From the IMG/VR virus record IMGVR_UViG_3300047551_002812, positions 15,358 through 79,357 of that record: a stretch of 64,000 nt of DNA; one strand, given 5' to 3'. Position numbers and translations under genes: made by a program. Of the stretch, positions 6,169 through 39,724 are shown in pieces. Within the stretch, counting starts at the first letter, position 1, and each line of letters starts with the position of its first letter. The notes beneath the pieces were generated by a model. The model did no database searches, had not been told where the DNA came from, and saw only the letters and a list, made by a program, of their open reading frames with translations. This stretch comes from a virus.

Positions 6169-7449
6169 TCAGTCGTCGAGGACTGATACGAGAGATTTAA
6201 GATCCTTCACGATCGAGTCCTTAAGCTCCTTTAGTCTTTTGATGGTTATTCTTAGGTCCTTGACGCATTTTTTATCGTCTTTCTCCTTGCACTTCGAGAC
6301 CTGTTCGGTTTGCTCTTTGATCTGGAGTTTCAGATCCTCCTGCTCTACGACTAACTTCTTGCATTTATCGAACATCTCGAGTTCCTCCGCGACGCTGAGG
6401 CAGAGGGTCTTATTCTTCCCGCGCAGTTCCGGGTTGGAGTTCTCCAGTCTGACTTTCCTCGCTTTGGAGAGGAAGAACTGCTTCTCGTCGTGGTGGGTCT
6501 CTCCGATCTCTGGCATGAAGAGTCCCTTTGACCGGAGGAAGTTTCTCGCGGAGAGTAGGTGGTCTTCTCGATCGGACACTAGATCCGAGTTGAGAACCTT
6601 AGAGAGCGTCTTCGTATCCTCCTTGGTGAATCTCCACTCTGTATCCTCGTTGTACAGGTCGAAGAACCTCAGCGGGGTCCCTGGGAGCAGGTTGTCCCCG
6701 GCGTCTCCTAAGTTCTCCTTGACTATGTAGCAACCGTACGCTGACTCGATGACGAACTTGTCCTTTCTGAGGTAGTAGTCGCAGACCTCACGTTCCGACC
6801 GGAGTCTAGGTAGCCACGGACCGGTATTGGCCCACACGATGCCATGTGAGTCGGACACCAGCCCCTGCCAGTCCCCGTCTACCGTGGAGAGGATGATCTG
6901 CCGCTGAGACAGTGGAGTACCCTTCCGGGCCTTACGCTTAAGCCTGCAGATATGCCCGGCTATATCATCCGCCTCGAAGAACTCTTTGGCGAAGTAGGGG
7001 AACGAGGAGCCCTTGGATAAGATGTACTCGTACCCCGCGGCCTCGGTGAGATCGAAGTGCGGGGTCTTCTCCCCTCGGCCGCCTTTGTACTCCGCCAGGT
7101 CAAGTTTGTGAGCCTCGATATGCCTCCAATATCCCACCCCAGTTGTCGAGGCTTCGGAGAACTCCGGATCGAATCGTCCCTTAAGGTCATCTACCACCAC
7201 TCCGACGAACGGGAAAGGCCGGAGCATATCCGGCCCGCGATTGAGCTTATAGGCCCACATCGCCTTCATGATGGTTCTCAGTTCTTTCTCGTCTTTTGCA
7301 ACTTCGGAGGCCAGTTGGGCGTACTTGTTGATCGCGTGGGCGTACACCTTGAAGTCGATAACAACAACCGGGCAGTACGGATCGGTAATCGGCTCGAATA
7401 CGTCCTCGAGTAGGGTGGAGGTGTGGTCGTATGAGGGAAGCGATATCAA
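6169..7449 (-). CDS. 5'-3' exonuclease / flap endonuclease (T4 RNase H-like) with C-terminal coiled coil
   Basis: FEN motifs VVVIDF, YKGGR, EADDIAG, STVDGDWQGL and GDAGDNL. Confidence 0.85.
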   Translation of the reverse strand: MISLPSYDHTSTLLEDVFEPITDPYCPVVVIDFKVYAHAINKYAQLASEVAKDEKELRTIMKAMWAYKLNRGPDMLRPFPFVGVVVDDLKGRFDPEFSEASTTGVGYWRHIEAHKLDLAEYKGGRGEKTPHFDLTEAAGYEYILSKGSSFPYFAKEFFEADDIAGHICRLKRKARKGTPLSQRQIILSTVDGDWQGLVSDSHGIVWANTGPWLPRLRSEREVCDYYLRKDKFVIESAYGCYIVKENLGDAGDNLLPGTPLRFFDLYNEDTEWRFTKEDTKTLSKVLNSDLVSDREDHLLSARNFLRSKGLFMPEIGETHHDEKQFFLSKARKVRLENSNPELRGKNKTLCLSVAEELEMFDKCKKLVVEQEDLKLQIKEQTEQVSKCKEKDDKKCVKDLRITIKRLKELKDSIVKDLKSLVSVLDD

Positions 7450-8282
7450 TTCGCCACCTCCATGCGGACGGAGGGATGGGACTCGTAATTGATGATCTCG
7501 AAGTCGGTCTCTGGATCTAGGTCGAAGATGTTCTTCTCGTTGTTGATCCAGACATCACAAGCGGACATGGGTACGTTCTTGATGATGGACTCGATCGCCA
7601 TCTCGTTCTGGGAGTAGATGTGGTTGTTGGCCGAGGCGAACATCACGAACCGAGGTACGAGATTAGCGTCTTGGGCCATCTTGGTAGTAAGAAGGCCATA
7701 GCGGAACATATCCAGAGGTACTCCGGTGGCCATGTCATTACTCCGCGCGTTGACCATCAGATCAAGATAAGTCCCATCGCTAGAAAACACGAGGTTAGGA
7801 TGACAAGGAGGGCAGTGAAGAGAATCGTAAGAAGGATTGAAAGTCTGAAGCACCAACTGGCGATTGGTCGGGTTGGTTCGGAGTTGCTCCCAGATCCACT
7901 TGAGTTGGTCGAATGGCGCATTACGAAACTTCTCCCACTGCATACTCTGCTCTGGACAGGCCTGGGGCCAGGATCGCCAGGAACGCCCGTAGGATCCCGC
8001 GAGACGGCCCTCGGTATCCGCCAGAAAGTCCCAGAAGTGCTTAGCGGGACCGAGATTCGTGACTCGGTAGTCCCCGTTGACATCCCACATGAACTCTCGG
8101 AAGAGGTTACGCACGGGCATCTTGCGGAGAGTGAGAGCGGGAAATCCCTCCCGAAGGTCGATCTTGATGGTCTGGCCGAACATCTGCTTATAGCGGAGAT
8201 TATTCCGACCGACAACCTCGGTTCCCTCGGTCAGGATCTCCTTGGCGATCTTGATGTACTGGTAGTCAAATGGCAGAGTCAT
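7446..8282 (-). CDS. thyA: Thymidylate synthase-family enzyme with Asp at the Asn177 position (candidate dCMP methylase/hydroxymethylase)
   Basis: TS motifs DLREGFP, EFMW, YGRSWRSW, DQL, PPCH (Cys160), RSND..GVPLD (Asp191), HIY and C-terminal VAN. The family call is firm; substrate specificity is inferred. Confidence 0.85.
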   Translation of the reverse strand: MTLPFDYQYIKIAKEILTEGTEVVGRNNLRYKQMFGQTIKIDLREGFPALTLRKMPVRNLFREFMWDVNGDYRVTNLGPAKHFWDFLADTEGRLAGSYGRSWRSWPQACPEQSMQWEKFRNAPFDQLKWIWEQLRTNPTNRQLVLQTFNPSYDSLHCPPCHPNLVFSSDGTYLDLMVNARSNDMATGVPLDMFRYGLLTTKMAQDANLVPRFVMFASANNHIYSQNEMAIESIIKNVPMSACDVWINNEKNIFDLDPETDFEIINYESHPSVRMEVAN

Positions 8283-8989: not shown

Positions 8990-10207
8990 ATGACTAAGTA
9001 CACTCACGGGCACATCATCCCCTTGGTAGGGGGGAGCGTGGTGGGAACCTCCCTCGCTCTCCGCTCCGATCCCCAGTGGATCGCGTCCTGGGGAAGTGTA
9101 TTCGGAGCGAATGACCGGTACTGCCTGCAGTACATGGAGAAAGTACCGTTTTACGATTTTGAGAAGGAACAGTCTCCATCCTCCTACGTAGATATAGTAA
9201 CCTCCTTACCACCCTGTGCCGGCCTGTCGATGGCAAATACCACTTCTGGGGACGCAGTCAATAATCCGCGTGGGTGCTCCGCCCCGAGTAACATACATAT
9301 GTACAACGCGGCGGAGTTCGCTATGTCGAAGATAGGACCCAGGGCCATGATGGTCGAGAACGCCCCGACTCTCTACTCGAAGATGGGAGAGGAGTTCGCG
9401 GAGAAGATCAACACTCTGGCCCAGAGTCACGGGTACGTCATGAGTCTGGTAAAAACAACCTCCATCAACCATGGGGTCCCGCAGGAGAGGACGAGGAGCT
9501 TCTTCTTCCTGTGGAAGGGTGACAGGGTGCCGGTTCTCTCCCCGATCAAGAGGGACTTCGTTCCCTTCCACCAGTTCCTGAAGGAAGGTCGATTCGCTAA
9601 GTCGGAGTCGGTCTCTAAATCCAAGAAGTTCCCGAGCGAGGATCCGCTGTGGCAGTTCATCGAGTCGAAGTACGCTGGCTGCACCAAGCAGGATGTCCTC
9701 TCCCGGGTAGCTTCCAAACGTATGACATCCACCTGGAACGTTATATACGACTCCGGATGGCTGGAGGAGGCCGCGAGAGTTGTCAAGGACGAGAAGGCGA
9801 ACCGTTGGCTCAATTACACCCTGGAGAAGAAGAGAGCTGGTAAGAATATCATGGACGGGAGCATGAAACTCGCGTGGTTTAGGACCCAGAGCCTGATGTG
9901 GAAGAGTCTCCCGTACCTTATGCACCCCCACGAGGACAGGTGGCTCACGGTAGCGGAGGGTCTGGGACTGATGGGATTCCCCGATGACTACGCGGCCAAG
10001 GTCTCCATACCCACGAAGCATAGTAACGTGATCTGCCAGAACGTTCCAGCCTGCACCGCTGGGGATTGGGTGGGGGAGATCGTTGAGGCTCTGGATGGAA
10101 ATAGGGAATGGATCGAGCCGGAGAGGAATCCCGATGGTAGTTACAGAATCCTGAGGCAGAACAATACTGCCTCTAAGAATCCGATGGAACCACTCTGGTC
10201 AGTGTAG
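8990..10207 (+). CDS. DNA (cytosine-C5) methyltransferase
   Basis: Motif IV PPCAGLS, motif VI VENAP, motif VIII GVPQERTRSFF, motif IX RWLTVAE..LMGFPDDY and motif X QNVP. Motif I is atypical (IIPLVGG). Confidence 0.85.
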   Translation: MTKYTHGHIIPLVGGSVVGTSLALRSDPQWIASWGSVFGANDRYCLQYMEKVPFYDFEKEQSPSSYVDIVTSLPPCAGLSMANTTSGDAVNNPRGCSAPSNIHMYNAAEFAMSKIGPRAMMVENAPTLYSKMGEEFAEKINTLAQSHGYVMSLVKTTSINHGVPQERTRSFFFLWKGDRVPVLSPIKRDFVPFHQFLKEGRFAKSESVSKSKKFPSEDPLWQFIESKYAGCTKQDVLSRVASKRMTSTWNVIYDSGWLEEAARVVKDEKANRWLNYTLEKKRAGKNIMDGSMKLAWFRTQSLMWKSLPYLMHPHEDRWLTVAEGLGLMGFPDDYAAKVSIPTKHSNVICQNVPACTAGDWVGEIVEALDGNREWIEPERNPDGSYRILRQNNTASKNPMEPLWSV

Positions 10208-10690: not shown

Positions 10691-10838
10691 CGCAATACTC
10701 GCACTCCTGTACTTCGTTAGGTTCGGCGTAGCCCTCGGGAGAGGTGTGAGTGATGATCTTGAAACCCCTCCCGTCGCAGTAGGCACATCTGTTGTACTCT
10801 ATCTGCTCTATCAGTCTCTGGACTTTTTTCTTTGTCAT
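10662..10838 (-). CDS. Small DnaJ-type zinc-finger protein
   Basis: Two CxxCxGxG motifs (CAYCDGRG, CEYCDGTG). ATG 10838 overlaps the upstream stop (ATGA). Confidence 0.65.
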   Translation of the reverse strand: MTKKKVQRLIEQIEYNRCAYCDGRGFKIITHTSPEGYAEPNEVQECEYCDGTGNSMGD

Positions 10839-11296
10839 GTGGTCAGGGAGAATTTCGCGGAATCGCACTCTCCACGCAGTTCCTTCGAGGGATCGGACGG
10901 TGCTGACTCCGTACCATTGGTGATGTGGTCCTTACGTTTCGAGTTGTAGTTGAGTTTTTTGGCGGCGATCTCGGCGAATTCCTTTCCACTAACTCCGGCG
11001 TACGCTAGAGCGGCCCTGTGGAACAGGAGCACGTCGAACATCTCAGCGATAAACTCCTCCCGGTTCTCTCCGGAATCCAGGAACGAGGGCTCGTTGATCT
11101 TCCAACTACGCCGGGGAACGTACACGCGGGCCTCGATAACCTCCTCGATGAGATGTCCGAGGTGCTCGATGACCTTGGCGTGGCGTGTGTCCCTGGAGAT
11201 ATCCTCGTCGAGAGGGCCGGGTTGTCCGGCCGCCCCGGCGTACTTCTGCTGGGAGGCGTACCCGTCGTCGATAAACTGCGCGTAATCAAAACTCAT
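10835..11296 (-). CDS. All-alpha NTP pyrophosphatase (dimeric dUTPase / T4 gp56-like dCTPase-dUTPase)
   Basis: EEVIE, RRSWK, AEMFDVLLF and KKLNYNSKR motifs. Confidence 0.7.
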   Translation of the reverse strand: MSFDYAQFIDDGYASQQKYAGAAGQPGPLDEDISRDTRHAKVIEHLGHLIEEVIEARVYVPRRSWKINEPSFLDSGENREEFIAEMFDVLLFHRAALAYAGVSGKEFAEIAAKKLNYNSKRKDHITNGTESAPSDPSKELRGECDSAKFSLTT

Positions 11297-15027: not shown

Positions 15028-15555
15028 TCAGATCTCACTCTCTGGGTAGGTGTAGTGCATCTGGTCGGAGATGGAGGCGGGGAGGGTGACGTTAAGAACC
15101 TTGTACGCGGCCTCTAGGGCCTCCTTGCGGGTGGATTTGTGCGGACTCTTGTAGGTTCCTTGATTGCCACGGAGCTTGGGGATGACGGAATAGAAGTACT
15201 CCTTGTCCGGGTGAGTGACCAGGTAGTAGTGGTAACCCCTCTGCCGGCCATCTTCAACCACCACCTCTTTATCCTCAAGGTGGAGTTGTCCGACGTCGTA
15301 GGGTTCGGAACCTTCCGGCTCCTGCTGGTTGGATTCCTCACCACCGTACGAGCAGTGCTCGGAACTCCCACGCGTAGTCTTTGCAGCCCCAAACTTTCCT
15401 TCCGGATCGACGTACTTGGAGTGGTAATCATCCTCACCGGTCTGAGGACCCGGTCTGACCAACTCCAGGTTTTTACTGGTTTTGCCAGTGTCGGCCCCCG
15501 GTTCGGCGTACTCGGCCAGCCCCCAACCCTCGGGGATCTTTAGTTCGTTCTTCAT
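15028..15555 (-). CDS. Hypothetical protein (late-type promoter)
   Basis: 175 aa ORF; GTTTAAAG at 15578-15585. Confidence 0.7.
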   Translation of the reverse strand: MKNELKIPEGWGLAEYAEPGADTGKTSKNLELVRPGPQTGEDDYHSKYVDPEGKFGAAKTTRGSSEHCSYGGEESNQQEPEGSEPYDVGQLHLEDKEVVVEDGRQRGYHYYLVTHPDKEYFYSVIPKLRGNQGTYKSPHKSTRKEALEAAYKVLNVTLPASISDQMHYTYPESEI

Positions 15556-39163: not shown

Positions 39164-39724
39164 TTAAACCATGTGAGCGAGGGAGGAGTCCTTTGATGGG
39201 GAGATGACTTGGATATCGGTCAGAAGCGAACGATGGGAGAGGTAGTCGCACATATACTTGTAGTACTCTCGGTGCTCCTTCTCACGAGCTTTTAACTGCG
39301 TACTCACGAAATACTCGGAGCAGCCCGGGTGAAGATCCTTGATCTCTTCGATGTGAAATGGCCTGGACCACTCCCACGATCTGCGTACGAGGAAGACCTT
39401 TATCTTGGAGCTGTAGGCTGCGAAAAACGACTCCGCGGAGTTAGCCCACTCCTCCGAGATGCTGATGTTCCTTCTGAACCGCTCGTAGAAGCACACCTCG
39501 GAGAAACCACGATCACAGATAACCACCTCGGCTTTTTCCTCCAGAGCGGACTGGAACGGATCGATGTACTGCTGGATCGGGGAGTGGTGGTGGGGTTGGG
39601 GTCCGAAGAAGTGGAGGGAGCGTACACAGATGTCCTTGGACACTAGGTCTTTTTTTGTATTTTCCACGAGGGTGGACTTGCCGACACGATCGGCTCCGAG
39701 CACAACGATAGTCTTCGGACGCAT
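39164..39724 (-). CDS. Thymidylate-kinase-like dNMP kinase
   Basis: P-loop GADRVGKST and VICDR..SE..Y; TGGTATGAT promoter at 39753-39761. Confidence 0.75.
   Translation of the reverse strand: MRPKTIVVLGADRVGKSTLVENTKKDLVSKDICVRSLHFFGPQPHHHSPIQQYIDPFQSALEEKAEVVICDRGFSEVCFYERFRRNISISEEWANSAESFFAAYSSKIKVFLVRRSWEWSRPFHIEEIKDLHPGCSEYFVSTQLKAREKEHREYYKYMCDYLSHRSLLTDIQVISPSKDSSLAHMV

Follow-up and report, generated by a model that had tools for sequence, protein, structure and literature searches.

A thymidylate synthase homologue with a dCMP-type active site in TIM5-like cyanophages is a candidate dCMP hydroxymethylase

A 64,000-nucleotide stretch of viral DNA (positions 15,358 to 79,357 of IMG/VR record IMGVR_UViG_3300047551_002812; hereafter the window) was analysed with a focus on one gene, at 7446..8282 on the minus strand, which encodes a thymidylate synthase (TS) homologue of 278 residues from an ATG start. 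The protein has the ThyA fold and belongs to a clade of its own, in which the residue equivalent to Asn177 of Escherichia coli ThyA is aspartate. Its predicted specificity for deoxycytidine monophosphate (dCMP) rather than deoxyuridine monophosphate (dUMP) is well supported by the conserved Asp177 (E. coli numbering, used below for alignment positions) together with a gene for the alternative synthase ThyX in the same record. We favour, with modest confidence, a function as dCMP hydroxymethylase making 5-hydroxymethyl-dCMP, in preference to the dCMP methylase put forward in a preliminary description of this DNA.

Fold, specificity residue and source of the enzyme

The translated reading frame matches PF00303 (Thymidylat_synt) with E 3.4e-55, residues 8-277 falling on profile positions 2-265 of 266, and solved thymidylate synthases align with it end to end at ~30% identity (best 7TA9, E 6e-35). 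The residues that mark membership of PF00303 (Cys146, Arg21, Arg126, Arg166, Ser167, Glu58, Tyr94, Asp169, His207 and Tyr209) are present, and among the catalytic and phosphate-binding residues checked only Arg127 is altered, to Gln. The C-terminus (...VRMEVAN) stops exactly level with that of the E. coli enzyme (...APVAI). Against NCBIfam TIGR03284, the thymidylate synthase equivalog family, the protein scores 141.3 bits for a cut-off of 108.35, which explains an automatic 'thymidylate synthase' label, although function is not thereby established. As the preliminary description had expected of annotation pipelines, GenBank and JGI names for the family are 'ThyA' or 'thymidylate synthase'.

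The protein is 79-80% identical to 'ThyA' of cyanophages S-TIM5, S-TIM54, S-TIM61 and S-TIM66, and the gene order of the window is that of S-TIM5 (NrdB, NrdA, small hypothetical, HNH, DNA methylase, ThyA, flap endonuclease, primase). The window is thus a fragment of a TIM5-like cyanophage (Aurunvirus); the IMG/VR record around it spans 79 kb and is 49% complete. The gene for the TS homologue is linked to the replication module, in that its stop codon and the start of the flap-endonuclease gene downstream (6169-7449) overlap.

The peptide RSNDMATGVPLDMFRY runs from residue 180 onward. In pairwise HMMER alignments with solved TS, Asp191 (GAT codon, 7710..7712, minus strand) faces the Asn of the TS motif 'vpfNiasY' without a gap, and a MAFFT L-INS-i alignment with E. 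coli ThyA (reference sequence from NC_000913) likewise sets it at Asn177, the pyrimidine specificity residue; the gap-free placement claimed earlier was therefore reproduced by both routes. Upstream in the protein, the codons of Cys157-Pro-Pro-Cys160 (7803..7814, minus strand; E. coli 143-146) specify the catalytic nucleophile, Cys160, and a cysteine that replaces Leu143 in the alignment columns.

Aspartate stands at this position in 83 of 83 close homologues covering the site, in 16 further IMG/VR loci that hold the gene at 79-89% identity and in S-TIM5, which excludes a sequencing error or an unconserved codon. A collection of 5.8 billion proteins contained ~90 cluster representatives, and those that bear a name are called 'thymidylate synthase'. 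An exhaustive HMMER search over 1.84 billion representatives delimited a discrete family (P0001-P0016, P0020 and P0025; 36-59% identity) set off from ordinary TS, which level out at ~30%, and Asp177 was found in every member of this wider clade, down to ~36% identity. When IMG/VR was scanned with individual queries, P0010 (an Ile143 variant) gave no match, a five-sequence family profile returned a TIM5-like contig only, and P0008 returned 7 useful loci, which are described below.

The exchange of Asn177 for Asp is an established dCMP determinant, routinely used on phage metagenomes (PMC8670742; bioRxiv 10.1101/2024.12.05.627091) and treated as such in PMC13326640 too; the headline of the preliminary description rests on a rule that was already known and is not new. 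Its statement that T4 gp42 has Asp at 177 within an RSND motif agrees with our alignment, where the two enzymes share these columns.

Genes for other steps of pyrimidine metabolism, whose presence elsewhere in the genome had been raised as a possibility, were found. A ThyX gene lies in the same record, 14 kb upstream of the window, and S-TIM5 encodes ThyX, a dCMP deaminase (PDB 4P9C) and the ThyA homologue, with the deaminase gene ~90 kb from the last. Because ThyX and dCMP deaminase are present, the supply of thymidine monophosphate (dTMP) needs neither the ThyA homologue nor the deamination of 5-methyl-dCMP, and the homologue is free for another role. The earlier suggestion that 5-methyl-dCMP is deaminated to dTMP is thus unnecessary. 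The active site of the S-TIM5 deaminase presumably disfavours a 5-methyl group, a point to which no weight is given here.

The proposal that this is no ordinary dUMP thymidylate synthase is borne out by the conserved Asp177, by ThyX in the record and in S-TIM5, and by the literature rule. A working dUMP enzyme, redundant with ThyX, would account for the score above the equivalog cut-off and for the phosphate-binding and catalytic residues, all of which are present in the PF00303 set given above. Asn177 and its orienting partner Gln165 are nevertheless replaced, here by Asp191 and Ala179 and throughout the clade; ThyX occurs in the phage and in every host checked; and the dedicated partner kinase and glycosylation genes described below would be left unexplained. 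We regard this explanation as very improbable.

Active-site signature and phylogenetic position

Products of TS homologues have been related to a few further positions. Methyl products are associated with a bulky hydrophobic Leu at 143, hydroxymethyl products with Asp or Glu, the stated mechanistic basis being that a bulky side chain excludes water; Leu143 and Gln165 both lie <6 Å from C5 of the pyrimidine; and Asp169-to-Asn marks the flavin-dependent 5-hydroxy-dCMP synthases, an unexpected chemistry already found in the family (PMC13326640). At positions 143/147/165/169/177, E. coli ThyA and RB69 td read L/H/Q/D/N with a canonical C-terminus. T4 gp42 reads D/T/M/D/D and RB69 gp48 E/T/M/N/D, both with a truncated C-terminus, and the SPO1, ViI and PhiW-14 enzymes read D/N/(N or Q)/D/N, with Trp80 lost and a long C-terminal extension. 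Xp12 reads N (or Val, with a one-residue deletion)/P/L/D/D and has a C-terminus that differs from TS. The window enzyme reads C/H/A/D/D and keeps Trp80, Tyr94 and the TS C-terminus; judged by these sequence features, it falls outside all four characterised classes of TS homologue.

With T4 gp42 and Bacillus phage G gp319 the window enzyme has in common the TS fold, the catalytic Cys, RSND, Asp177, Glu58 and Tyr94. Those two enzymes have Asp143, Thr147, Met165, Ser205 and no TS C-terminus, whereas the window enzyme has Cys143 (Cys157; Cys, Thr, Ile or Gly in the clade), His147 (His161), Ala165, Asn205 and a C-terminus of TS length. The dCMP methyltransferase of Xp12 (QNN97214) resembles it in being of ThyA length, in Asp177 and Trp80 and in its annotation as 'thymidylate synthase', but has Pro147 and Leu165; enzymes of its type are defined by Asp177 combined with Pro147 and a hydrophobic 143, where the TIM5 type has His147, Ala165 and Cys143. 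RB69 gp48 and DLP3 gp80 are Asp177-type homologues whose product accepts furanose sugars in DNA glycosylation (PMC13326640); their diagnostic Asp169-to-Asn and Glu143 are not in the window enzyme, which keeps Asp183 in RSND. In engineered E. coli ThyA Asn177Asp and Lactobacillus casei TS Asn229Asp, on which the earlier inference of a methylase was based, a single specificity switch sits on a canonical TS scaffold, whereas the window enzyme carries many further conserved substitutions near C5 and in the folate pocket (L143C, Q165A, W83L, F176L, R127Q and D205N).

The signature of the window enzyme (Cys/Thr143, His147, Ala165, Asn168, Asp169, Asp177, Asn205) is set in a wider pattern of conservation. 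Family-wide, Arg21, Glu58, Trp80, Tyr94, Arg126, Cys146, His147, Arg166, Ser167, Asp169, Asp177, Asn205, His207 and Tyr209 are retained, position 165 is a small residue (Ala, Gly or Ser), position 143 is non-acidic and the C-termini finish at the TS end point. Close relatives have Cys (74), Thr (4) or Ile (1) at 143, and distant members Ile (P0010, P0012) or Gly (P0016).

In an IQ-TREE phylogeny of 51 sequences the TIM5 family forms one clade with 100/100 support, apart from canonical ThyA, from Xp12 and from the gp42-type clade. The last comprises T4 gp42, RB69 gp48, phage G gp319 and the 5-hydroxymethyl-dUMP synthases of SPO1, ViI and PhiW-14 (support 99/87, long branches). Several Asp177 variants with minimal further change are scattered among canonical ThyA; these keep the folate-pocket residues Trp83, Phe176 and Gln165, which are altered in the TIM5 type.

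Such a separate clade, with a signature that fits none of the four characterised classes, might have another C5 product made from dCMP (neither methyl nor hydroxymethyl nor the flavin-dependent 5-hydroxy) that serves as acceptor for a glycosyltransferase, and 5-hydroxylation is a precedent for new chemistry in the TS family (PMC13326640). Nothing found speaks positively for another chemistry, the enzyme does not carry the 5-hydroxy marker Asp169-to-Asn, and the Cys-Pro-Pro-Cys motif is not invariant, which makes this possibility improbable. The motif had been considered as a redox CxxC and was rejected, since Thr replaces Cys143 in relatives of 88-90% identity and Ile or Gly in others.

One clade member, P0006 (447 residues), was called with an HNH/NUMOD4 homing endonuclease fused to its TS domain. 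Its 168-residue N-terminal extension had been considered as a dihydrofolate reductase (DHFR) fusion, which was rejected on finding the endonuclease domain instead. The arrangement suggests a homing endonuclease inserted at or in a TS-homologue gene, like the intron in T4 td.

Genome context and the product of the enzyme

S-TIM5 encodes a 426-residue homologue of the T4 DNA alpha-glucosyltransferase (AGT) that lies above the Pfam AGT cut-off and matches PDB 1Y6F (E 2e-14) and, over its full length, phrog_2888 (E 3e-150). Among 50,697 phage records, AGT homologues were confined to T-even phages, the four TIM5-like isolates and Bacillus phage G. Each of the four isolates has a full-length copy, as have both IMG/VR records of TIM5-like phages that reach the region, the sole complete one (G002) among them; TIM5-like records that have none, that of the window included, stop before it. 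To our knowledge, the AGT family has no acceptor other than 5-hydroxymethylcytosine (5hmC) in DNA. In the complete genome (L054:2407-4847) the AGT gene overlaps a UDP-galactopyranose mutase gene (mutase E 2e-73) by 4 nucleotides, so that the two are translationally coupled. S-TIM5 has the AGT and no mutase, and the attached sugar may accordingly differ among TIM5-like phages, glucose in some and furanose in others.

A second phage lineage carries the same enzyme in a similar setting. The loci found with P0008 (L045-L051) lie on 7 IMG/VR fragments (G013-G019) that are 6-20% complete, from genomes that are probably >200 kb. These phages share with TIM5 a mitochondrial-like DNA polymerase exonuclease domain, gyrase and the pairing of TS homologue and kinase, and have Mu-like portal and morphogenesis genes, unlike TIM5. 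Their TS signature is identical to that of the window enzyme. A kinase homologue stands directly upstream of the TS homologue in 5 of 6 loci (25-32% identity to the kinase of the window, E 1e-14 to 1e-16), and kinase and TS homologue are the sole genes common to these loci and the 64-kb window. One locus has the order UDP-galactopyranose mutase, kinase, two open reading frames, TS homologue. A conserved gene between kinase and TS homologue (L048:2260-3613, plus strand) encodes ~460 residues in homologues and appears here to be split or to have an internal start. It gave no Pfam, PHROG or Atlas match, and an AlphaFold2 model of a 476-residue form was too poor to use (predicted local distance difference test score, pLDDT, 50); it is a candidate for a further step of the modification pathway.

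The supply of folate also bears on the product. Of the two chemistries, a reductive methylase releases one dihydrofolate for each modified cytosine made, and a hydroxymethylase regenerates tetrahydrofolate (THF). No DHFR was found in S-TIM5 or in the record of the window. ThyX occurs in each of eight marine Synechococcus genomes (G020-G027; 4 of 8 complete chromosomes), whereas ThyA and FolA-type DHFR were found in none of them; a freshwater S. elongatus control does have a DHFR. With no recognisable high-capacity reductase, folate economy argues against a methylase. As a separate observation on the eight host genomes, a route for reducing dihydrofolate from de novo folate synthesis was not evident in these searches.

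A further source of 5hmC would be a C5-methyltransferase followed by a TET-type oxidase. Tet_JBP gave no match in S-TIM5 or in the record of the window, a weak negative since the control gave no match anywhere either, and no 2-oxoglutarate oxygenase is annotated in S-TIM5. On these grounds 5hmC would not arise by oxidation of 5-methylcytosine in S-TIM5, and this source was rejected.

A dCMP methylase would transfer hydride from THF to give 5-methyl-dCMP and dihydrofolate, and would lead to 5-methylcytosine DNA as in Xp12, with the AGT given another acceptor or role. Natural Asp177 homologues do make this product, among them that of Xp12 and five metagenomic TS homologues (bioRxiv 10.1101/2024.12.05.627091), and the Asn-to-Asp exchange by itself is enough to make a TS a dCMP methylase (Liu & Santi 1992 and Hardy & Nalivaika 1992, as cited in PMC8670742). 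The residues that serve closure and hydride transfer in TS are retained in the window enzyme (Trp80, Tyr94, His147, Asp169 and the TS C-terminus). Of the features that the preliminary description had taken to favour methyl transfer, His147 and the C-terminus do look TS-like, and Trp80 does not discriminate, being kept by T4 gp42. On the other side, a methylase would leave the conserved T4-type AGT and the mutase couplings unexplained, with no TET-type oxidase to bridge the gap. The Xp12 gene adjoins a DHFR gene, in an operon that also holds dCMP deaminase and in a phage with no second thymidylate synthase match; TIM5-like phages have ThyX and AGT, and there is no DHFR in the phage or in the marine Synechococcus hosts. 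The Pro147 and Leu/Val143 of Xp12-like enzymes are missing here, the two fall in different parts of the tree, and Trp83, Phe176 and Gln165 are changed, unlike in the Asp177 variants among canonical ThyA. A methylase is, in our judgement, a serious alternative but on balance an unlikely one. The 5-methyl-dCMP product proposed earlier thus becomes, in our view, less likely, given the AGT, the absence of DHFR and TET and the hosts without FolA.

Several observations weigh against a hydroxymethylase. The six hydroxymethylases and hydroxylases aligned, which are experimentally characterised or T4-like (T4 gp42, RB69 gp48, SPO1 gp29, ViI, PhiW-14 and phage G gp319), all have Asp or Glu at 143 and none has His147 or a TS C-terminus, whereas the window enzyme has Cys143 and retains His147, Trp80, Tyr94 and a C-terminus of TS length. 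No clade member has an acidic 143, and a few have Ile; in the tree the clade lies nearer to canonical ThyA than to the hydroxymethylases. By sequence alone the enzyme looks more like a methylase, as the preliminary description held, and the engineered Asn-to-Asp TS is itself a methylase. The record of the window, being 49% complete, misses the AGT region, so that the link to a glycosyltransferase rests on relatives. Finally, a gene for a C5 cytosine DNA methyltransferase-like protein (8990..10207, plus strand; PF00145, E 9e-17, with the match beginning only at residue 44) is found two genes away from the TS homologue, in the orientation opposite to its neighbours, and is conserved in S-TIM5. 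If cytosine were fully replaced before replication, its product would have no substrate in phage DNA, and the gene is hard to reconcile with complete replacement.

The hydroxymethylase reading is nonetheless the one we prefer, since context was judged slightly stronger than the sequence rules. Three considerations led to this judgement: the acceptor of the AGT, whose association with the clade is strengthened by two independent mutase couplings; the water-exclusion basis of the rule for position 143; and the folate economy. An AGT without DHFR or TET, in phages of hosts without FolA, favours a hydroxymethyl acceptor over a methyl group. In our judgement Cys, Thr or Gly at 143 provides no bulky exclusion of water and Gln165-to-Ala opens more space by C5, and the replacement of these two residues near C5 by small ones was counted in favour of a hydroxymethylase. 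The company of gp42-type enzymes in their genomes is also like that in TIM5 (DNA alpha-glucosyltransferase, dCMP deaminase, a separate thymidylate synthase, a deoxynucleoside monophosphate (dNMP) kinase and a dCTPase-like enzyme).

Bacillus phage G offers a comparison. A compact cluster in its genome (L044; NC_023719, 222965-236131) combines two alpha-glucosyltransferases, a sugar-1-phosphate nucleotidyltransferase, a HAD phosphatase, a thymidylate kinase, a dCMP deaminase and gp319, which has the full gp42 signature D143/T147/M165/D177/S205. This arrangement predicts glycosylated 5hmC in phage G DNA. With an acidic 143 beside AGT genes, the rule for this position holds in a second AGT-bearing lineage, and TIM5 is the exception.

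A possible pathway and its significance

Two further genes of the window are candidates for the same pathway. A P-loop kinase (39164..39724, minus strand; phrog_761 thymidylate kinase, E 2.8e-7) is a candidate dNMP kinase for modified dCMP, analogous to T4 gp1. An all-alpha MazG-like nucleoside triphosphate pyrophosphohydrolase of 153 residues (10835..11296, minus strand) is a candidate dCTPase or dUTPase. It has weak matches to phrog_12184 (E 1.6e-5) and PRA-PH (E 0.018), carries invariant EExxE...ExxD motifs and gave an AlphaFold2 model of pLDDT 88, for which the top Foldseek matches were the MazG-like dUTPase DR2231 and the dCTPase DCTPP1 (probability 0.9-1.0, E only ~0.1). A role as dCTPase is plausible, and PRA-PH domains have been reported beside cytosine-modifying TS homologues (bioRxiv 10.1101/2024.12.05.627091).

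In the pathway that we envisage, the MazG-like pyrophosphatase would convert dCTP to dCMP and so keep dCTP out of DNA. Cys160 of the TS homologue would attack C6 of dCMP, chosen by Asp191, and a methylene group would pass from methylene-THF to C5. Water would then add to the exocyclic methylene, for which the small residues at 143 (Cys/Thr) and 165 (Ala) would leave room, giving 5-hydroxymethyl-dCMP and THF. The partner kinase would start phosphorylation toward the triphosphate, the mitochondrial-like polymerase of the phage would incorporate the modified nucleotide, and the T4-type DNA alpha-glycosyltransferase, whose gene lies elsewhere in TIM5-like genomes, would decorate the base. ThyX would make dTMP separately, from dUMP supplied by the phage dCMP deaminase.

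What appears to be new is a well-supported TS clade with its own signature (Cys/Thr143, His147, Ala165, Asp177, Asn205) and the implied hypermodification of cytosine in TIM5-like cyanophages and a related marine lineage. In the passages of the TIM5-like phage literature searched (PMC10087341), which do not extend to the original 2012 description of S-TIM5, the genes are labelled 'ThyA' and 'DNA alpha-GT' and modified DNA is not mentioned. A bolder proposal is that the TIM5 family is a fifth class of TS homologue, with a novel product or with hydroxymethylation achieved without an acidic 143 inside a TS-like closed site, which would underlie glucosylated or furanosylated cytosine in TIM5-like cyanophages and in related, largely unsampled large marine phages; we consider it doubtful.

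Almost all pre-replicative hypermodification of pyrimidines in phages starts with a TS homologue, and the products of these enzymes are now predicted from three or four active-site positions. The TIM5 clade breaks this scheme, because it joins the dCMP switch, an AGT and a sugar-nucleotide mutase to a position 143 that lacks the acidic residue of characterised hydroxymethylases. On the account given here, every database copy of the TIM5-type protein is mislabelled as thymidylate synthase. TIM5-like cyanophages are a globally distributed lineage that infects marine Synechococcus, and if their DNA is hypermodified, this would bear on their resistance to host restriction, on their recovery in metagenomes and on their quantification by PCR- or enzyme-based methods.

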